Positions 2,552 through 28,341 of a DNA stretch of 29,617 bases are shown in pieces; position 1 is the first letter of the stretch; every line of letters starts with the position of its first letter. The notes below the pieces were generated by a model. It was not told the origin of the DNA. It saw only the letters and a list, made by a program, of their open reading frames with translations, and ran no database searches. The translations under genes and the position numbers were made by a program. This DNA comes from a virus. The stretch lies in UHGV virus genome UHGV-0179686; one strand, 5' to 3'.

Positions 2552-2860
2552 TTATCGGGTGGATGCGACAAGGATGACGTCTACGTCGATCATGTCGATG
2601 AGATCGTGGAGTTCCTCGGCCTCGTTCTCGGTGAGTGGCTGCCAGTCGTAGTCGCCGTATACGGCGCCGTCGAGGGTGACCGTCCACAGGGGCCGGATGA
2701 GTCGTACGGCTTCTTGTACTTTAGCGTGGTACATGCGGCGCACCATATCCAGATCGATGTCGCCTGAATGGTTTCCGGTGAGGCTGTGGAGGCTGAGCGG
2801 GTCGATTTCTGTCTGCCTGTAGAGGGATGTGAAGGATGGGGTGATGAGTGTGCCATCCAT
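2552..2860 (-). CDS. hypothetical protein (102 aa), tandem paralog of 2201..2512; first gene of the leftward arm next to the non-coding right end
   Basis: ORF-track frame; RBS GAAAGGAG about 9 nt upstream of ATG at 2860; paralogy with the 2201..2512 product by eye. Confidence 0.5.
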   Translation of the reverse strand: MDGTLITPSFTSLYRQTEIDPLSLHSLTGNHSGDIDLDMVRRMYHAKVQEAVRLIRPLWTVTLDGAVYGDYDWQPLTENEAEELHDLIDMIDVDVILVASTR

Positions 2861-2923
2861 GAGGGTGTGCTCCTTTCGGTGGTGTATGGGTTGTTGTGGT
2901 TTCTAGAGTGTGTAGGTTGCAAC

Positions 2924-2962
2924 CGGGAGTCAAGGCTGCGCTCAAACCTAGTGAGCGTTTCA
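2924..2962 (-). promoter_or_regulatory. repeated promoter/operator-like element B (TTGACT plus CGCTCA-N7-TGAGCG inverted repeat) upstream of the first leftward gene
   Basis: gtcaaggctgcgctcaaacctagtgagcgtttcatg; near-identical to element A; located about 65 nt upstream of start codon 2860. Confidence 0.35.
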
Positions 2963-3489
2963 TGCTGGAGTGTTGGGTGTGACGGATGTCACTTAAGCAT
3001 TTACCGCCTCTCCCAGCGTCTCAAATCTTCTGGGGGTAGGATTATATAGGGTTGACCCTGCTGATCGATTCTAGGGGCCTTCTAGGGCGTCTCAGGGGTA
3101 TGTCTGGGTGATAGCAGGTTCGGTAGATGACCCGGCAGATCTACCTTGGCTTTCATCACAAAGGTCGAGGTGCCAGATCTGGGCATGGAATCTACACCCT
3201 CATACTGTGTGAGATGTATCACATCCTCCTGGCGTGGTGTGCCCCCTCAAGGCCACTCTGTCGATCTGGCGTAGAGGGTGTAGCCCAGAAATGCCGTTTA
3301 AAGCTTCAGGGGTACGCCGAGGAGCGCCTTACAGGGTGGAGGCTAGGTATTTATACCCCCAGCACATTCTGATCAATCCTAGACGCCCCCAGGAGACTGA
3401 TACACGATCCACCATCTCGGCATAGACCATCAACCCCTATCCCGCTTAGCTAAGCCTCAACTATGTGGACAGTGTGGGATACTGAGGGG

Positions 3490-3520
3490 GAAGAAGGACA
3501 CGGTAAAAGAAAGAGGGGGG
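3490..3520. repeat. left copy of 30-bp inverted repeat (purine-rich on plus strand: gaagaaggacacggtaaaagaaagagggggg)
   Basis: Reverse complement matches 4902-4931 over 25 contiguous nt (tctttcttttaccgtgtccttcttc) plus flanking C/G run. Confidence 0.7.
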
Positions 3521-3575
3521 AGCATCAGCCTTCAAGCCTTAAGGTCTTAGCGCTTAGCACCGATGGTCTTAGCAG

Positions 3576-3608
3576 TTAGCACCGAGCCCCTCAAGGGCTC
3601 GGCATCAG
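3576..3608. repeat. 33-bp direct-repeat element copy 1 containing perfect GC hairpin CCGAGCCC-CTCAA-GGGCTCGG followed by CATCAG
   Basis: ttagcaccgagcccctcaagggctcggcatcag, identical to 4085-4117. Confidence 0.7.
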
Positions 3609-4039
3609 CCCGAACAGGCACAGCCCTGAAAGGAGTACACGCCATCAGGGAAGGCTTGAGAGTACGAGGAGCCCTAGCGACGAGTACTCGAAAGCCTGAG
3701 GGAAGACCATCAGCACTGATGGGCCTAGCGTGTTCGGAAAGGACACAAGGGTACAGTGTGAGAGCTGTTCGGGAGTGAAACCTGTTCTGACTAGGGGTTT
3801 CAGTCTTAACCACCCTCAAAGGTTACAAGACTCTAAGAAAATTTAAGGAAAAGTTTAGGTTTAATTTTTGGACCTTTACTACCAAAAACACCCGTTTACA
3901 CTCCTCAAACCCGCCTATAGAGCCAAATCCACCAGTTTGACTCATCCCAGGTGGCATATGATAGGCTGGACAGGTAGCCAGCTGGACGCAAGGCCGAAAT
4001 CCGCTGACGCGGCTTTCACCCTTACATCCATCAGTCTAC

Positions 4040-4530
4040 CAAACACTTTAAAGCTTCAAGGCTTAGCGCTAAGGTGCTGATAGCTTAGCACCGAGCCCCT
4101 CAAGGGCTCGGCATCAGTCTTAAAGCTTTAAACACTTTAAGTAACTTTAAAACCTTAACAGCTTAGCACTTAAGGATCTAAGTTACTATAAAAGCTTTAA
4201 AGTCTTAAAGTACATATAAAACCTTAACAGTTAAACGTTAAAAGCTTTAAACCTTAACACCTAAGTTAAGTATAAAACCTTAAAGGCTTAGCACTTAAGG
4301 ATATAAACTTCACATCAGTGTTTAAGACTTTACAGCTTAAAATAACTATTAAGACTTCAAGGCTTATAAGCTTTAAACACTTAAAGTAACTATAAAACTT
4401 TAAAAACCTTAAGTACTTAAAGTTAACCATCAGTCTTAAACTTTAATATTATAACCTATAAGTCTTAAAGCTTATAGGTATAATAATATAATATAAGTAT
4501 TAAAGCTTATAAGTTATAAAAGTTTTAGAA
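4040..4530. repeat. AT-rich degenerate tandem-repeat region (about 120-125 bp period, words cttaa/agctt/ttaaag/tataa); a shorter AT-rich patch also at 3826-3890
   Basis: A 60-nt sample 4141-4200 has 17 G+C by count, against visibly GC-rich flanks. gcttagcacttaaggat recurs at 4161 and 4286; agctttaaacactt at 4124 and 4369; aaaccttaa at 4151/4211/4271. Confidence 0.6.
4085..4117. repeat. 33-bp direct-repeat element copy 2 (same GC hairpin plus CATCAG)
   Basis: Identical to 3576-3608; spacing 509 bp. Confidence 0.7.
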
Positions 4531-4540
4531 GAGTTAAAGG

Positions 4541-4597
4541 GTTAACTTCTTTACTTCTCTTCTCTCTTTGGTTCTTTCTCTCTTCTCTTCTTTTCTT
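4541..4597. repeat. polypyrimidine (C/T) tract about 57 nt on plus strand, followed by purine run ggggagaagaggaa
   Basis: ttaacttctttacttctcttctctctttggttctttctctcttctcttcttttcttc; strand-asymmetric, mirror-like; H-DNA/triplex-forming potential. Confidence 0.5.
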
Positions 4598-4901
4598 CAT
4601 CAGGGGAGAAGAGGAACCTTTAACGTCAACGCTGACAGACTTTTCGCCGTGTGTCTCGTGTGCTTCTGGTCGCAAGCTCCCATCGCACACTCCCCACACT
4701 CTTACACCCGTGTCCCTTTCAGGCTTAGCGTGTTCGGCTGAAGGCGTACGGCTTGTCACGCTCACACCCTTAACACCAGGTAAGACTTAAAGTGTATATT
4801 ATAAGTAGAAGACTTTAAAACCTTAAGGGTGTTCCTGCTGAGCCTGTGTCCTTTAACGCTAGGCGCTAGGCGCTAAGCTGTGAAACGCGAACACCCATAC
4901 A

Positions 4902-4931
4902 CCCCTTCTTTCTTTTACCGTGTCCTTCTTC
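4902..4931. repeat. right copy of 30-bp inverted repeat (ccccttctttcttttaccgtgtccttcttc)
   Basis: Reverse complement of 3490-3520; the two copies bracket the AT-rich repeat module (about 1.38 kb). Confidence 0.7.
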
Positions 4932-5151
4932 TTTTGACACCGCTGGGGGGCGATGTGATCTTTCTCACACCCATGGGGGTAGTGGAGAAAACAACCACCC
5001 CGGCACACACAGAACACCCCCTCAAACGAACAAAACAGCCCCTAGGATCGAACAGTAGGGCACCGGTAGGGTATTCCTACCCCAAGACGATTCTAGGCCG
5101 TTACAGGAGAAATGAGAGGCTCGCAGGGGTTATAGGTGATTGGGGGATGCG

Positions 5152-5454
5152 ATGACACACACCAACCGCACCGCATCCTCCGCCCATCGGCGCTGGCGGG
5201 CAAGGCTCATCACCCAAGCCCAACAACAAGGCCAAACCGAATGCCCACTCTGCGGAGCCCAGATAGCCTGGGGCACACACGATCTACCAACTAGCCCCGA
5301 AGCCGACCACATCACACCCGTCAGCAGGGGAGGACTCAACACCCTCGACAACGGGCAAATCATCTGCAGAACATGCAACAGAAGCAAAGGCAATCGCAGC
5401 GAACCAAACATCAAATTCCAACAACAAACCACAAAAACATTGATTCCATGGTGA
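5152..5454 (+). CDS. HNH endonuclease (about 100 aa), adjacent to cos and terminase genes
   Basis: CPLCGAQ...DHITPVSRGGLNTLDNGQIICRTCNRSKGN is an HNH motif with two Cys pairs. ATG at 5152 with GGGGGA 5 nt upstream; ORF-track TTG at 5140 is an alternative. Confidence 0.75.
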   Translation: MTHTNRTASSAHRRWRARLITQAQQQGQTECPLCGAQIAWGTHDLPTSPEADHITPVSRGGLNTLDNGQIICRTCNRSKGNRSEPNIKFQQQTTKTLIPW

Positions 5455-5505
5455 CAAACCCGCCAACCCCCACCGGGGACACCCCCTGCACAGGCGTGCA
5501 AAACC

Positions 5506-5516
5506 TCGTACGGCTT
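5506..5516. other. candidate cohesive-end (cos) core TCGTACGGCTT between the HNH gene and the small terminase gene
   Basis: Sequence seen at 5506-5516. I recall this 11-nt 3' overhang being reported for C. acnes phages; contains CGTACG palindrome; flanked by TGCAC-aggc-GTGCA palindrome at 5488-5501. Confidence 0.55.
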
Positions 5517-5580
5517 AGTGAAATACCTCCCTTTTGTGGTTTTGTCTGTTTGTCGACTTTTTGTGTTGGTGGTGAGTGTT

Positions 5581-5889
5581 GTGCAGCCTGAGCTTCCTGA
5601 TGGTCGTGAGTGGTGTGGGGAGACGCGTCGTTGGTGGCGTGTGTGGGGTGAGGATAGTCGTGCGCAGTACGTGTCTGATGAGGAGTGGCTGTTTCTCATG
5701 GATGCTGCGGTGATTCATGATTGTGTGTGGCGTGAGGGTCGCGCGGATTTGGTGGCTTCGCTTCGTGCTCATGTGAAGGCGTTTATGGGCATGTTGGATC
5801 GTTATTCGGTTGATGTGGCGTCTGGTGGCCGTGGTGGGGGTTCTGCGGTGGCGATGATTGACCGGTATAGGAAGCGTAAAGGGGCCTAA
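5581..5889 (+). CDS. terminase small subunit (putative; start uncertain, ORF-track frame opens at 5518)
   Basis: Position immediately upstream of and overlapping (TAATG at 5887-5891) the large terminase. GTG at 5581 preceded by GGTGGTGAG. The N-terminal 20 codons of the ORF-track version are G/T-rich and look non-coding. Confidence 0.45.
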   Translation: MQPELPDGREWCGETRRWWRVWGEDSRAQYVSDEEWLFLMDAAVIHDCVWREGRADLVASLRAHVKAFMGMLDRYSVDVASGGRGGGSAVAMIDRYRKRKGA

Positions 5890-7400
5890 TGTCGAGCGTT
5901 GTTGGTTCTCAGGTTCCTCGTCACCGTGTGGCTGCGGCGTATTCGGTGTCTGCTGGTGGTGATGCTGGGGAGTTGGGTCGTGCGTATGGGTTGACGCCTG
6001 ATCCGTGGCAGCAGCAGGTGTTGGATGATTGGCTGGCTGTCGGTGGTAATGGCAGGCTTGCTTCGGGTGTGTGTGGGGTGTTTGTGCCTCGCCAGAATGG
6101 CAAGAATGCTATTTTGGAGGTTGTGGAGTTGTTTAAGGCGACTATTCAGGGTCGCCGTATTTTGCATACGGCTCACGAGTTGAAGTCGGCTCGTAAGGCG
6201 TTTATGCGGTTGCGTTCGTTTTTTGAGAATGAGCGGCAGTTTCCTGACTTGTATCGTATGGTGAAGTCGATTCGTGCGACGAATGGCCAGGAGGCTATTG
6301 TGTTGCATCATCCGGATTGTGCCACGTTTGAGCGTAAGTGTGGCTGTCCGGGTTGGGGTTCGGTGGAGTTTGTGGCCCGTAGCCGGGGTTCTGCTCGCGG
6401 TTTTACGGTTGATGATTTGGTGTGTGATGAGGCTCAGGAGTTGTCGGATGAGCAGTTGGAGGCTTTGCTTCCTACGGTGAGCGCTGCCCCGTCTGGTGAT
6501 CCGCAGCAGATTTTCCTTGGCACGCCGCCTGGGCCGTTGGCTGACGGGTCTGTGGTGTTGCGTCTTCGTGGGCAGGCTTTGTCGGGTGGTAAAAGGTTTG
6601 CGTGGACGGAGTTTTCGATTCCTGATGAGTCTGATCCGGATGATGTGTCGCGGCAGTGGCGGAAGTTGGCGGGGGATACGAATCCGGCGTTGGGGCGTCG
6701 TCTGAATTTTGGGACAGTCTCGGATGAGCATGAGTCGATGTCTGCTGCGGGTTTTGCTCGGGAGCGGCTTGGCTGGTGGGATCGTGGCCAGTCTGCTGCG
6801 TCTGTGATTCCTGCGGATAAGTGGGCTCAGTCTGCTGTGGATGAGGCGAGTTTGGTTGGCGGGAAAGTGTTTGGTGTCTCGTTTTCTCGTTCTGGGGATC
6901 GGGTCGCGTTGGCTGGTGCTGGCCGGACTGATGCTGGGGTTCATGTTGAGGTTATTGATGGGCTGTCGGGAACGATTGTTGATGGTGTGGGCCGGTTGGC
7001 TGACTGGTTGGCGGTTCGTTGGGGTGATACTGACCGGATCATGGTTGCCGGGTCTGGTGCGGTGTTGTTGCAGAAGGCGTTGACGGATCGTGGTATTCCG
7101 GGCCGTGGCGTGATTGTTGCTGATACTGGGGTGTATGTGGAGGCTTGTCAAGCCTTCCTGGAAGGCGTAAGGTCTGGGAATGTTTCTCATCCTCGTGCTG
7201 ATTCTCGCCGTGACATGTTGGATATTGCTGTGAGGTCGGCGGTTCAGAAAAAGAAAGGCTCTGCGTGGGGTTGGGGTTCCTCGTTTAAGGATGGTTCTGA
7301 GGTTCCTTTGGAGGCTGTGTCGTTGGCGTTTTTGGGGGCGAAACGTGTTCGTCGTGGCCGTCGGGAGCGTAGTGGTAGGAAGCGGGTGTCTGTGGTATGA
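5889..7400 (+). CDS. terminase large subunit (503 aa)
   Basis: Size and position; ATPase P-loop-like VPRQNGKNA; 4-nt ATGA overlap with portal gene. Confidence 0.85.
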   Translation: MSSVVGSQVPRHRVAAAYSVSAGGDAGELGRAYGLTPDPWQQQVLDDWLAVGGNGRLASGVCGVFVPRQNGKNAILEVVELFKATIQGRRILHTAHELKSARKAFMRLRSFFENERQFPDLYRMVKSIRATNGQEAIVLHHPDCATFERKCGCPGWGSVEFVARSRGSARGFTVDDLVCDEAQELSDEQLEALLPTVSAAPSGDPQQIFLGTPPGPLADGSVVLRLRGQALSGGKRFAWTEFSIPDESDPDDVSRQWRKLAGDTNPALGRRLNFGTVSDEHESMSAAGFARERLGWWDRGQSAASVIPADKWAQSAVDEASLVGGKVFGVSFSRSGDRVALAGAGRTDAGVHVEVIDGLSGTIVDGVGRLADWLAVRWGDTDRIMVAGSGAVLLQKALTDRGIPGRGVIVADTGVYVEACQAFLEGVRSGNVSHPRADSRRDMLDIAVRSAVQKKKGSAWGWGSSFKDGSEVPLEAVSLAFLGAKRVRRGRRERSGRKRVSVV

Positions 7401-12259: not shown

Positions 12260-12627
12260 TCGTTTATGGTGATCCGCGTGTGTGGGCTAAACGTGTGCTC
12301 AAGGATGATGGCTGGCTGTCCGATATACCTTGTGTGGGGACGGTGCCTGAGGATTTTAGCGGTGACTTGATTTGGTTGGCTCTTGATGGTGGCCCGCAGT
12401 TGCATGTTCGTGAGCGTGTTTTTTTGCGGGTGAACGTGTTTTCTGATATGCCGGATCGTGCTATGTCGCTAGCCAGGCGTGTTGAGGCTGTGCTGGTTGA
12501 TGGTGTGGATGGTGACCCGGTGGTGTTTTGTCGGCGTTCTACTGGCCCTGATTTGCTGGTTGATGGTGCACGTTTTGATGTGTATTCGCTTTTTGAGCTT
12601 ATATGTAGGCCTGCGGAGTCTGAATAA
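12256..12627 (+). CDS. head-tail component / tail terminator-like (123 aa, GTG start)
   Basis: Position immediately before major tail protein gene; GTGA overlap. Confidence 0.5.
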   Translation: MIVYGDPRVWAKRVLKDDGWLSDIPCVGTVPEDFSGDLIWLALDGGPQLHVRERVFLRVNVFSDMPDRAMSLARRVEAVLVDGVDGDPVVFCRRSTGPDLLVDGARFDVYSLFELICRPAESE

Positions 12628-12666
12628 GCTTATTGTTTTTGTTTTAATGTAATTGTTTGATATTTA

Positions 12667-13323
12667 ATGGGGGTTATGATGGCTGCAACACGTAAAGCGT
12701 CTAATGTTCGCTCTGCTGTTACGGGTGACGTCTATATTGGTAAAGCTCATGCCGGTGACACTATTGATGGTGTGAAGACGGTTCCTGACGGTCTTACCGC
12801 TTTAGGGTACCTGTCGGATGACGGGTTTAAGATTAAGCCTGAGCGTAAAACGGATGATTTGAAGGCTTGGCAGAATGCGGATGTTGTTCGCACTGTGGCT
12901 ACAGAGTCGTCTATCGAGATTTCTTTCCAGCTGATCGAGTCTAAGAAAGAGGTTATCGAACTGTTTTGGCAGTCGAAGGTTACTGCCGGATCCGATTCGG
13001 GTTCGTTCGATATTTCTCCTGGTGCCACCACTGGCGTGCACGCCCTGTTGATGGATATTATTGATGGCGATCAGGTTATTCGCTACTATTTCCCTGAGGT
13101 CGAGTTGATTGATCGTGACGAGATTAAGGGCAAGAATGGCGAGGTGTATGGGTATGGTGTGACGTTGAAGGCGTATCCTGCCCAGATTAACCATAAGGGT
13201 GATGCGGTGTCGGGTCGGGGGTGGATGACGGCTTTAAAAGCTGATACTCCCCCGGTTCCTCCTTCTCCGAAGCCGGAGCCTCCTAAGCCTGAGCCGGATC
13301 CGAATCCGCCGTCTAATAACTGA
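12667..13323 (+). CDS. major tail protein (about 214-218 aa; alternative start ATG 12679 after GGGGG RBS) with Pro-rich C-terminal PEPPKPEPDPNPP tail
   Basis: Position before chaperone/tape measure; preceded by a 39-nt AT-rich intergenic patch (12628-12666). Confidence 0.7.
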   Translation: MGVMMAATRKASNVRSAVTGDVYIGKAHAGDTIDGVKTVPDGLTALGYLSDDGFKIKPERKTDDLKAWQNADVVRTVATESSIEISFQLIESKKEVIELFWQSKVTAGSDSGSFDISPGATTGVHALLMDIIDGDQVIRYYFPEVELIDRDEIKGKNGEVYGYGVTLKAYPAQINHKGDAVSGRGWMTALKADTPPVPPSPKPEPPKPEPDPNPPSNN

Positions 13324-22838: not shown

Positions 22839-23240
22839 TTATCCCATCCCTGTGCTGTCGTCGTTTTCGTCTGGCATGTAGTATGTGCTGTTTGCGTACT
22901 CGGTTAACGTCATCAGTGTTTGGTCTGCCCACTGTTTCACGGTTTGCCGGGTGACACCCAATCGTTGGGCGGCTGTGGCGTAGGTTTGGTCGTATCCGTA
23001 GACTTCCCGGAATGCTGCCAACCTAGCTAAATGTTTTCGCTGTTTGGAGGGTTCACAGGTGAGGGTGTAGTCGTCGATGGCTAGCTGTAGATCGATCATG
23101 GTGGCAATGTTGTTGCCGTGATGCTGGGGGGCGGTTGGTGGGGGTGGCATTCCTGGCTCCACGGAGGGTTTCCATGGGCCGCCGTTCCAGATCCATTGGG
23201 CGGCTTGGATGATGTCGGCGGTGGTGTAGGTTCGGTTCAC
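22839..23240 (-). CDS. sigma-70 region-4-like HTH DNA-binding protein (133 aa)
   Basis: YATAAQRLGVTRQTVKQWADQ resembles the sigma region 4.2 helix-turn-helix. Confidence 0.5.
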   Translation of the reverse strand: MNRTYTTADIIQAAQWIWNGGPWKPSVEPGMPPPPTAPQHHGNNIATMIDLQLAIDDYTLTCEPSKQRKHLARLAAFREVYGYDQTYATAAQRLGVTRQTVKQWADQTLMTLTEYANSTYYMPDENDDSTGMG

Positions 23241-26252: not shown

Positions 26253-26924
26253 TTACTGTAGCACAGTGTTGAGGGCTTGTGTCAACCCTGTTTTGCCGGC
26301 CTGCAGGTAGGTGTCTGTGACATCCCCGACAGTGAGGGGCACATGGGTGGCTTGGGGGAGTGCTGCCTGGAGGGTTTGGGCCATCTGGTCGCCTGCGGGG
26401 TCTGGGTCTGACCAGATGTAGATGTGGTCGTAGCCTTCAAAAAATTTGGTCCAAAAGTTTTGCCACGAGGTGGCGCCGGGTAGGGCTACGGCCGACCATC
26501 CGCATTGTTCGAGGATCATGGAGTCGAATTCGCCTTCGCAAATGTGCATTTCGGCTGCCGGGTTGGCCATGGCGGCCATGTTGTAGATGGAGCCTGTGTC
26601 CCCTGCCGGGGTTAAGTATTTGGGGTGGTTGTGGGTTTTGCAGTCGTGCGGGAGTGAGCAGCGGAAACGCATTTTTCGTATTTCGGCTGGGCCGTCCCAT
26701 GTGGGGTACATGTAGGGGATGGTGATGCACTGGTTGTAGTTTTCGTGGCCTGGGATGGGGTCATTGTCGATGTATCCAAGGTGGTGGTTGCGGGCTGTTT
26801 CTTCGCTGATGCCTCTTGCTGAGAGCAGGTCGAGAATGTTTTCGAGGTGGGTTTCGTAGCGGGCTGATGCTTTCTGGATTCGGCGGCGTTCCGCAATGTT
26901 GTATGGGCGTATGCTGTCGTACAT
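26253..26924 (-). CDS. DNA primase, TOPRIM-domain part (223 aa)
   Basis: HICEGEFDSMILEQ...IYIWSDPDPAGDQ matches the TOPRIM E / DxD signature. Confidence 0.7.
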   Translation of the reverse strand: MYDSIRPYNIAERRRIQKASARYETHLENILDLLSARGISEETARNHHLGYIDNDPIPGHENYNQCITIPYMYPTWDGPAEIRKMRFRCSLPHDCKTHNHPKYLTPAGDTGSIYNMAAMANPAAEMHICEGEFDSMILEQCGWSAVALPGATSWQNFWTKFFEGYDHIYIWSDPDPAGDQMAQTLQAALPQATHVPLTVGDVTDTYLQAGKTGLTQALNTVLQ

Positions 26925-27162
26925 TCGGGTTTTCTTTCTCTAGTCGTTGTTGTAGTTTGGCGAGTCCGCCTCCGATGCCGCATGTGTGGCAGTACCAGAC
27001 GCCCTTGTCGAGGTTGATGCTCATGGAGGGCTGGTGGTCGTCGTGGAGCGGGCAGAGTATGTGTTGCTCGTTCCTGGATGGGTTGTACCGTATCTGGTAG
27101 GTGTCGAGGAGGTGGCGGGTGTCAGAGGTGTGGGAGGAGCTCGTTGAGGGTTGATACCACAT
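26761..27162 (-). CDS. DNA primase zinc-binding (CHC2) domain ORF; native sequence ends around 26926, remainder of frame overlaps the TOPRIM gene and looks non-native
   Basis: CPLHDDHQPSMSINLDKGVWYCHTCGIGG is a CHC2 zinc finger. After ...QQRLEKENP the frame reads P/R/H-rich sequence and overlaps 26253..26924, which sits in another frame. Confidence 0.6.
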   Translation of the reverse strand: MWYQPSTSSSHTSDTRHLLDTYQIRYNPSRNEQHILCPLHDDHQPSMSINLDKGVWYCHTCGIGGGLAKLQQRLEKENPNVRQHTPIQHCGTPPNPESISPLRNPPRKHSRPALSKRHQRRNSPQPPPWIHRQ

Positions 27163-27478
27163 AGGCTTCGCTCCAGGGTTTGTTGCGCTGTTTCATGATG
27201 ACTAGGCCGATGGTGGATTGGTTTTTGCGGTTTCGGTGGGTTTCGTAGTTGCGCGCCTCAAGGGTGGCTTCTTTCACGAATTGGGCTAGGTGTGGTTGCC
27301 CGGCTTTCGCCTCGATAATGTAGGTTTTGTTGCCGGTTTTGAGGATGAGGTCGCCTTCGTCTTCCCTTCCGTTGAGATGGAGGCGCTCTATATCATAGCC
27401 GGTGTCGCGTAGCTGGTGGAGGAGTCGTGTTTCCCATTCGGCTCCTGCCCTGCGGTTGCGTGCCTGTTGTGTCGACAT
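27122..27478 (-). CDS. Hjc-like Holliday-junction resolvase / PD-(D/E)XK nuclease (118 aa)
   Basis: GAEWETRLLHQLRDTGYD...DLILKTGNKTYIIEAK fits the G.E.E...L...G....D....IExK pattern. Confidence 0.45.
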   Translation of the reverse strand: MSTQQARNRRAGAEWETRLLHQLRDTGYDIERLHLNGREDEGDLILKTGNKTYIIEAKAGQPHLAQFVKEATLEARNYETHRNRKNQSTIGLVIMKQRNKPWSEAYVVSTLNELLPHL

Positions 27479-28341
27479 GATAGTCCTTTGTGTGTTGTGG
27501 TCATGTTCCAGGGCTGTTTTTCGGCGAGGGGCCCGAAGAATGTGTATTCGGGGTAGGCTCGTAGTCTTTCGTATCGGGTGCCGTCTGGGCTGGATTTGCC
27601 TGTGCGCTGTTTCAACACTGCGATGCGTGCCTCGGCGGGGATGGTGAGCCCGTTGCCATTATCCTCGCCACCATACAATGATACTCCGAGAATGAGTTGT
27701 GGTTTTTCGGAGAGTCCGTTTTTGATTTCCCGGCGTGCTGGCGGGTGTTCGATGTCGGAGCCGGTTTTGTCGGTTGCGTGGTGTGTGACAATAATGGTGG
27801 AGCCAGTATCCCTACCCAATGCTGTGATCCATTGCATGGCTTCTTGCTGGGCCTGATAGTCACTCTCGCAGTCTTGGATGTCCATGAGGTTGTCGATAAC
27901 AATGAGTGGTGGGAAGGTGTTCCACATTTCCATGTAGGCTTGCAGTTCCATGGTGATGTCGGTCCAGGTGATGGGTGACTGGAATGAGAAGGTGATGTGT
28001 TGGCCGTGGTGGATGCTGTCTCGATAGTATTCTGGCCCGTAGTTGTCGATGTTGTGTTGTATCTGTGTGGTGGTGTGTTGGGTGTTGAGTGAGATGATTC
28101 GTGTGGAGGCCTCCCAGGGTGTCATGTCCCCTGATATGTAGAGGGCGGGCTGGTTGAGCATGGCGGTGATGAACATGGCTAGCCCGGATTTTTGGCTGCC
28201 GGAGCGCCCCGCGATCATGACTAGGTCCCCTTTGTGGATGTGCATGTCCAGGTTGCGGTAGAGGGGTTCTAGCTGGGGTATGCGGGGCAGCTCGGCGGCT
28301 GTTTGGGAGGCCCTCTCGAAGGATCGTTGTAGAGAGAGCAT
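27388..28341 (-). CDS. DnaB-like helicase C-terminal domain / RecA-fold ATPase (317 aa)
   Basis: Walker A-like AGRSGSQKSGLAM, Walker B-like PLIVIDNLMD. Confidence 0.6.
   Translation of the reverse strand: MLSLQRSFERASQTAAELPRIPQLEPLYRNLDMHIHKGDLVMIAGRSGSQKSGLAMFITAMLNQPALYISGDMTPWEASTRIISLNTQHTTTQIQHNIDNYGPEYYRDSIHHGQHITFSFQSPITWTDITMELQAYMEMWNTFPPLIVIDNLMDIQDCESDYQAQQEAMQWITALGRDTGSTIIVTHHATDKTGSDIEHPPARREIKNGLSEKPQLILGVSLYGGEDNGNGLTIPAEARIAVLKQRTGKSSPDGTRYERLRAYPEYTFFGPLAEKQPWNMTTTHKGLSCRHNRHATAGQEPNGKHDSSTSYATPAMI

Follow-up and report, generated by a model that had tools for sequence, protein, structure and literature searches.

The stretch of DNA analysed here, referred to below as the window (viral genome UHGV-0179686, 29,617 bp), is the whole genome of a Cutibacterium acnes phage of the genus Pahexavirus, circularly permuted, and this work concerns the AT-rich core (4113-4545) of its long non-coding region. 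In Megablast comparisons with the phage collection, the intervals 3000-6000 and 2861-4879 matched 231-232 records at 80-95% identity, all of which come from Propionibacterium/Cutibacterium acnes phages of this genus. The cos overhang, TCGTACGGCTT, is found at 5506-5516 on the plus strand; since the records of MrAK, Lauchelly, and P101A terminate with TCGTACGGCTT, the packaged right end was placed at 5516 and the left end at 5517. The AT core lies 970-1400 bp from this overhang.

Because the gene of the leftward block nearest to the non-coding region begins at 2860, and the first rightward gene with a consistent annotation, a gp45-like open reading frame (ORF; 4880-5155, plus strand), begins at 4880, the AT core sits in a non-coding region of ~2 kb between divergent gene blocks; the annotation of MrAK has no coding sequence between the equivalents of window positions 2860 and 4879. 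This control region, ~1 kb from the right cos end, has the leftward replication and early genes on one side and the rightward HNH, terminase, and structural genes on the other. An HNH endonuclease gene (5140-5454, plus strand) adjoins cos, and the small and large terminase genes start at 5518 and 5889, respectively. The first genes of the leftward operon and the nearest to the non-coding region (2201-2512 and 2552-2860, minus strand) are paralogues, both assigned to phrog_919 (function unknown).

The interval 4113-4545 has a G+C content of 24.9%, the minimum of the genome, and the somewhat wider interval 4040-4530 has 28.9%. No 400-bp windows of the genome are lower than those at 4121-4171 (24.5-25%), 200-bp windows at 4200-4600 range from 0.23 to 0.27, and the next-lowest region outside the core area reaches 43.75%, at 12551. 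The sequence-only reading, an earlier reading of the same letters, had described an AT-rich core inside a GC-rich phage genome. The dip persists on exact computation and is the deepest in the genome, while “GC-rich” is appropriate only in a relative sense, as the whole genome has 54.1% G+C.

The words that had been noticed in this interval are indeed concentrated there, with 14 of the 22 genome copies of cttaa, nine of the 13 of ttaaag, and 13 of the 17 of tataa lying inside 4040-4530. Two longer repeats, gcttagcacttaaggat at 4161 and 4286 and agctttaaacactt at 4124 and 4369, were found exactly where they had been placed, whereas aaaccttaa, which had been listed at 4151, 4211, and 4271, is present at 4150, 4219, 4249, 4275, and 4404. 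The periodicity of 120-125 bp proposed from these repeats did not hold in that form. When the autocorrelation of 4113-4545 was compared with that of 500 dinucleotide-preserving shuffles, the strongest lag was 8 (z 7.6), with 42, 35, and 253 next in order; lag 125 gave a weak secondary signal (z 4.7, slightly over the shuffle maximum of 4.6). A repeat search returned four degenerate 60-nt copies with 67-75% identity at irregular spacings (69, 56, and 120). Tandem Repeats Finder (TRF) detected no array with a period of 120-125; what it reported was local arrays (period 29/35/16) at 4416-4520, plus the CT-rich tract (4546-4598). The words also share an orientation, with 111 occurrences of CTTAAAG vs 21 of its reverse complement, CTTTAAG, over 21 phages. 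The core is a degenerate, polar array of ~8-bp words (e.g., CTTAAAG, CTTTAAA, and CCTTAA) plus some larger duplications, and not a 120-bp tandem repeat.

Several further parts surround and subdivide the core, all given here on the plus strand. The purine-rich left arm of a 30-nt inverted repeat (IR-L, 3490-3519) is 97% complementary to a pyrimidine-rich right arm (IR-R, 4902-4931) within the 5' end of the gp45-like ORF, and the two arms enclose a 1.4-kb portion of the non-coding region. A 70-nt direct repeat follows IR-L, and its copy 1 (3539-3608) contains GCTTAGCAC words, then a GC-rich hairpin (CCGAGCCC-CTCAA-GGGCTCGG, 3582-3602), then CATCAG. Copy 2 (4048-4117, with its hairpin at 4091-4111 and CATCAG at 4112-4117) borders the AT core on the left. 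The copies are separated by a segment (3609-4047) that is dispensable, being missing in phage PAS50. An ORF on the minus strand (3547-3819, phrog_14941) lies mostly within this deletable segment.

The core itself has two parts. The variable part (4118-4415) carries the oriented ~8-bp words CTTAAAG, CTTTAAA, CCTTAA, and GCTTAGCAC, with CATCAG at 4313, and the conserved, AT-richest module (4416-4545) contains CATCAG at 4428, a palindrome (CCTATAAG-TCTTAAAG-CTTATAGG, 4455-4478), and two perfect TATAAT hexamers at 4479 and 4487. A near-invariant pyrimidine tract (the CT tract, 4546-4620) follows, in which the pyrimidine-rich stretch leads to CATCAG at 4598 and a purine run. Its segment 4546-4598 is 94% pyrimidine with mirror symmetry at 19 of 22 positions about 4572, which gives it the homopurine-homopyrimidine mirror-repeat character of candidate H-DNA, and the 3' part of the tract (4580-4591) pairs with the purine run (4602-4613). 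A second small AT-rich islet with the same words (GACTTAAAG, TATATTATAAG, and AAAACCTTAAGG) is located at 4780-4830, 50-100 bp upstream of the first rightward gene, and has 90.6% identity among the phages.

CATCAG links several of these parts, as it occurs after each hairpin, within the core, and at the end of the CT tract. There are ten plus-strand copies in 3523-4603 (1.1 kb) vs five in the other 28.5 kb, no copy in the opposite orientation was found in any of 21 cores, and the CATCAG positions are 94.9% conserved. The hexamer appears to behave more like a real site. A palindromic CATCAG pair, CATCAGCACTGATG, is present at 3708-3721. Strand bias of the hexamer outside the region was rejected as a signal, since the plus-strand excess of CTGATG roughly follows compositional skew and only the local cluster is unusual.

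A coding reading of the core and the CT tract was also rejected, as the “gp46” ORF of PA6 has no ATG in the window and in PHL150M00, and small-ORF annotations disagree between records. This ORF lies just right of the CT tract, behind a strong Shine-Dalgarno-like run (GAGAAGAGGAA). At 4635-4637, where PA6, PAS50, and PAD20 have the gp46 ATG, both the window and PHL150M00 have ACA; given this loss, gp46 is probably not a conserved gene. An Rfam search of 2700-5700 returned only chance-level matches (E at least 0.5), and a search for tRNA and tmRNA genes found none.

Conservation and length polymorphism of the core

At the right end, we compared the window with 21 diverse genomes of Pahexavirus (22 genomes), and we scanned IMG/VR with a pattern of the conserved CT tract, which gave 80 loci; 72 contigs were used for core measurements, making 94 genomes and contigs in all. 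All 22 genomes and all 72 contigs keep the AT core in the same place, with its right edge ~900 bp from the right end. The order of the parts is constant: the purine 30-mer, the 70-nt repeat, a spacer of ~440 bp, the second copy of the repeat (and a third in some phages), the AT core, the pyrimidine tract, and ~900 bp to the right end. The G+C content of the core has a median of 0.24 in the 72 contigs and is 0.19-0.28 for nearly all genomes.

The length of the core differs in almost every genome or contig, from roughly 110 to 500 bp. The second hairpin copy forms the left border of the core in 20 of the 22 genomes, where 272-502 bp separate it from the beginning of the conserved motif that closes the CT tract. 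The exceptions are PAD20 (281 bp), for which the measurement starts at an additional copy closer to the core, and PHL085N00, which has a single recognisable copy (931 bp with the spacer counted in). In 70 of the 72 contigs, the last hairpin and the beginning of the CT tract are 111-465 bp apart (median 329); in the two outliers (768 and 790 bp), the nearest hairpin copy was probably unrecognised.

Sequence conservation rises from left to right. Insertions and deletions between phages are frequent in the variable part (4118-4415), where the interval 4118-4310 has 74.7% identity with 27% gaps, while 4416-4545 has 92.9% identity and 4546-4620 has 97.8% with zero gaps; the flanking genes, at 81-90%, are below both of the latter. 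IR-L was found with at most five mismatches in all 22 genomes (mean pairwise identity 91.5%), and IR-R was recognisable at the same threshold in 13 of them. No sign of inversion of the segment between the two arms was seen in any genome compared.

Six matches of the CT-tract scan outside Pahexavirus were treated as chance or low complexity, five of them by their G+C content of 34-39% alone. One candidate for a related locus, L039 (IMGVR_UViG_3300028591_005024), was inspected and set aside as an unrelated viral contig. At 3440-3600 this contig has (CACATT)x9, then a CT tract (CTTTACTTTTTCTTTGGTTCTTTCT), then a stretch of 20% G+C upstream of a gene. CTTTACTTTTTCTTTGGTTCTTTCT differs at one of 25 positions from the tract of the C. 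avidum phage described below, which could be a chance likeness of low-complexity DNA or a shared kind of element.

The expectation that such a region is hard to assemble and varies in copy number was thus correct as to length polymorphism but not as to an artefact, as the core recurs in more than 90 independent assemblies and is present in the Sanger-sequenced PA6, PAD20, and PAS50. A related explanation, in which the core is an accessory site for packaging or cos recognition, could draw on its place close to the right end of a cos phage genome, near the HNH and terminase genes. However, the core is separated from the overhang by the distance given above, and the cos-adjacent region has a conserved sequence of its own. 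We regard both packaging and an assembly artefact as extremely improbable.

Traces of rearrangement are found in several parts of the region. The 70-nt repeat has one to three copies depending on the phage, and in MrAK, SKKY, YGP1, and PHL150M00 a third copy lies inside the AT core. Of 72 loci, 59 have TCTTAAAG as the 8-nt loop of the palindrome, and seven have the exact reverse complement of this loop, CTTTAAGA. This inversion of the loop suggests template switching in vivo, mediated by a hairpin or cruciform. A deletion of ~500 bp in this non-coding region was reported for the viable phage PAS50 (Lood and Collin 2011). In the PAS50 sequence (L003, 2200-2310), the left flank of copy 1 is joined directly to the right flank of copy 2, so the deletion reads as recombination between the two 70-nt repeats that left the AT core intact. 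The PAS50 deletion is thus no argument that the core is dispensable, as the segment between the repeats was removed instead.

The nearest outgroup is the C. avidum phage CA1NRNZ (PV441878.1), whose large terminase (TerL) has 72% identity. At the equivalent place (31034-31330), it has a purine tract of ~65 nt, an AT core of ~100 bp, and a pyrimidine tract of ~40 nt. This AT core is the G+C minimum of that genome and is made of the words ACTA, TAACT, and TACTAG, and the CT tract, CTTTACTTTTTCTTTGGTACTTTCT, is homologous to 4550-4580 of the window. Neither CTTAAAG nor CATCAG was found in the CA1NRNZ region. Since CA1NRNZ keeps the AT core and the tracts without these words, AT-richness and the purine and pyrimidine tracts are conserved, while the words are specific to the lineage. 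The arrangement in CA1NRNZ is symmetric about its G+C minimum, and a DNA methyltransferase gene lies between the region and the HNH gene.

The divergence of the left part raises the question of selection. The interval 4118-4415 might have no sequence-specific function and be cryptically simple DNA, produced by slippage or unequal recombination and either tolerated or kept for its composition only. Its low identity and many gaps, a length that is different in nearly every genome, words that are no better conserved than their spacers and are absent from the C. avidum phage, the inverted loop, and the varying copy number of the 70-nt repeat are all consistent with such a neutral array. However, the core was lost in no genome, its G+C content is held within the narrow range given above against a background of 54%, and its words have a strong common orientation; together, these three features suggest selection, at least on composition and polarity. 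We consider it unlikely that the left part is merely neutral in this sense.

Predicted duplex opening and the origin reading

Duplex destabilisation was calculated with our own implementation of Benham energetics and an exact partition function. With the whole genome treated as one domain, 4442-4527 is predicted to begin opening at a superhelical density (sigma) of -0.035, and at -0.04 the interval 4364-4539 is predicted to open with a probability of 1.0 as the sole opening site. In 6-kb windows at sigma -0.045, the core is again the first and strongest predicted site (P 0.98). The second most easily melted stretch in the 6-kb windows, 12618-12676, belongs to the structural block and to a dip in G+C content (46% at 12501-13000); it stays closed when competing with the main core. 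The likeness to a DNA-unwinding element drawn by the sequence-only reading is supported by the core being the sole predicted melting site, by its non-coding position between divergent blocks, and by the earlier proposal of an origin from GC skew (PMC3448167). In addition, the conserved module folds far better than shuffled sequences, both as single-stranded DNA (z -5.4) and as minus-strand RNA (z -6.1).

GC skew is +0.27 to +0.32 on both arms of the genome, irrespective of the coding strand, and is zero or negative solely at 3871-5531, the zone that contains the core. Over both gene blocks, G and T are in excess on the plus strand (skews of about +0.3), and the coding strands of the right arm are C- and A-rich. 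The return to positive skew takes place within 15 bp of the cos cut, and the gp45-like and HNH genes (4880-5454, plus strand) carry the reversed skew.

The AT-rich region was already known and was published in 2012 as a putative origin of C. acnes phages. Marinelli et al. (2012, mBio, PMC3448167, Fig. 5, S3, and S4) described a long non-coding region (more than 1 kb) close to the right end, in which the G+C content falls below 25% on the left side, low-complexity runs are well conserved, and variation among genomes is greatest; based on a switch of GC skew that is independent of transcription, they proposed an origin of replication. All of these features (position, low G+C, conserved runs, variation, and skew switch) were reproduced here. 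The gain of the present analysis is a finer anatomy of this published feature and not a new kind of element: it adds the oriented ~8-bp words, the CATCAG cluster, the predicted opening site, the length polymorphism in 94 genomes and contigs, an explanation of the PAS50 deletion, and the architecture of the C. avidum phage.

We estimate a probability of about 0.5 that the AT core is the DNA-unwinding element of the phage replication origin and control region. In this reading, the conserved right module, comprising the palindrome, the AT-richest stretch, the CT tract with its hairpin, and CATCAG, would carry a sequence-specific function, and the left part (4118-4415) would be kept for composition, position, and polarity rather than for sequence or length.

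A number of observations weigh against an origin at the core. Its propensity to melt follows from its AT-richness and is no proof of function, the left part tolerates large insertions and deletions, and CA1NRNZ does not have the two-arm pattern of GC skew. By bacterial convention, the minimum of cumulative skew marks the origin. In the window, this minimum, which is also the sharpest switch, is at cos (5503-5531) and the other switch is at ~3871, so that the skew brackets the core without pinpointing it. Promoters must also lie in the intergenic region, and the conservation could serve transcription. The literature searched holds no report that maps the origin or the transcripts of a C. acnes phage.

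The comparison with classical iterons also counts against an origin of the familiar type. Classical iterons are 17-22 bp long and regularly spaced, and their cognate initiator is usually encoded next to or around them, often together with DnaA boxes. No helically phased iterons of 17-22 bp were found in the core, where the words are 7-8 bp long with a spacing of ~8 bp, and word positions are no better conserved than spacers (mean identity 0.849 vs 0.873; Mann-Whitney p 0.88). DnaA boxes occur at chance level (12 matches vs 11.3 expected), and the sole match near the non-coding region is a box with one mismatch at 3464. Pfam and PHROG scans of 22 ORFs detected no initiator family among those of the right arm, several of which are of unknown function. 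The suggestion that the words act as iterons is therefore not upheld: size and spacing are wrong, the words have no extra conservation and are missing in CA1NRNZ, and neither a recognisable initiator nor a cluster of DnaA boxes was found.

The genes of the right arm, all on the minus strand, include a replication set. A DnaB-like helicase (27388-28341) and a split DnaG-type primase (26253-27162) are encoded there together with RusA, exonucleases, and a dATP/dGTP pyrophosphohydrolase; a polymerase, like an initiator, was not recognised in the Pfam and PHROG scans.

The same region may instead control transcription, with promoters or regulator sites for the rightward and/or leftward operons and an AT-richness that would serve promoter melting. 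Promoters must be near, as divergent blocks stand on either side, and the conserved module holds, besides the two TATAAT hexamers, one sigma-70-like match (TTAACC-18-TATTAT, 4423-4452). A pattern TTAAAG-N7-9-TATAA, read from the sequence, recurs at ~4465, 4500, and 4786. Such sites might be read by a 133-aa protein with a Sigma70_r4/helix-turn-helix (HTH) match that the phage encodes at 22839-23240 on the minus strand (Pfam E 1.4e-5; PHROG “sigma factor” E 3.8e-7). Its gene is the final one of the leftward block, and the protein is a candidate phage transcription regulator. However, sigma-70 promoter matches are not enriched over shuffles (2 vs 2.2 expected), and terminators are likewise not enriched. 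The leftward genes are 1.26 kb away and the rightward ones 335 bp, with the islet at 4780-4830 nearer to the rightward gene; moreover, 430 bp at 25% G+C far exceeds what a promoter needs, and the repeated words are almost absent elsewhere in the genome. That transcription control is the role of the core seems to us possible but doubtful.

Silencers of the Lsr2/CgpS type target sharp drops of G+C content in other actinobacteria. The core could accordingly be a platform for a putatively binding, AT-preferring Lsr2-like protein of the host, which would silence or stall the incoming genome and aid pseudolysogeny. The sharp drop to ~25% G+C, the many TA steps, and an actinobacterial host with 60% G+C fit this possibility, as do the abundance of an Lsr2-like protein in C. 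acnes (PMC8227259) and the documented pseudolysogeny with circular episomes. On the other hand, one would expect a target for silencing to disappear from a lytic phage, but the core is retained in every genome, and the invariant CT tract and the palindrome are left unexplained. We find this role quite improbable. The likeness to Lsr2/CgpS targets lies in a discrete, sharp drop of G+C content in foreign DNA and in a high-G+C host with an Lsr2-like protein; the difference is that the island is conserved by the phage itself and is not a by-product of horizontal transfer.

A possible start of replication and its relation to known systems

If the core is an origin, the injected genome would circularise via its cos ends, and negative supercoiling would melt 110-180 bp of its most AT-rich DNA (4364-4539). 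Helicase and primase may then enter at a place defined by CATCAG, the palindrome (4455-4478), and the hairpin-bearing pyrimidine tract of 75 bp. This entry may depend on transcription or on an R-loop across the purine/pyrimidine tract, as in the origins of c2, T4, and T7. Given that neither a recognisable initiator nor iterons were found, and that the c2 type offers an analogue, we infer that a start assisted by transcription or an R-loop is plausible.

The closest parallel is found in the c2-type lactococcal phages (Ceduovirus; c2, bIL67, and 923 types), which are likewise small cos siphoviruses with divergent blocks and a variable, AT-rich, ORF-free region between them (PMC7150918). This non-coding region between the early and late blocks holds their proven origin, which differs from phage to phage, needs no phage proteins, and relies on a non-coding transcript (PMC7150918). 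The c2 origin was proven by plasmid replication and by the PE1 transcript, whereas the one considered here is putative and has no sequence similarity to it. The arrangement in the window also resembles iteron origins (lambda ori; pSC101, RK2, and F) in having an AT-rich unwinding element beside repeated elements. It differs from them in its short words at ~8-bp spacing, which are not preferentially conserved, and in that no initiator or DnaA-box cluster was found.

A third group of origins, the primary origin of T7, oriF and oriG of T4, and that of ColE1, combines an AT-rich unwound segment with a transcribed element and uses no dedicated origin-binding initiator. In origins of the T7 and T4 type, helicase and primase are supplied by the phage. 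The purine/pyrimidine tract of the window would likewise give a very stable RNA-DNA hybrid if it were transcribed leftward. Origins primed by transcription or an R-loop serve here as a mechanistic lead only.

A more elaborate form of this idea is an initiator-free origin, in which a leftward, purine-rich transcript over the CT tract would recruit helicase and primase at the melted core as an R-loop or triplex, with the ten CATCAG copies as priming or loading signals; Lsr2-like coating would act as a switch to pseudolysogeny, and the length of the core would tune the lytic vs the carrier state. C. acnes phages are known to persist as circular episomes in pseudolysogens. We offer this scheme as speculation and think it improbable as a whole.

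C. acnes phages are in development for acne therapy and as an engineering chassis, and their episomal persistence (pseudolysogeny) limits such use. In these very uniform genomes, the origin/control region is the one part with a function that is so far inferred only. If the origin were defined, shuttle vectors and phagemids could be built for a host in which genetic work is difficult, and it would become clear how a phage that has a helicase and a primase, but no recognisable initiator, starts its replication.

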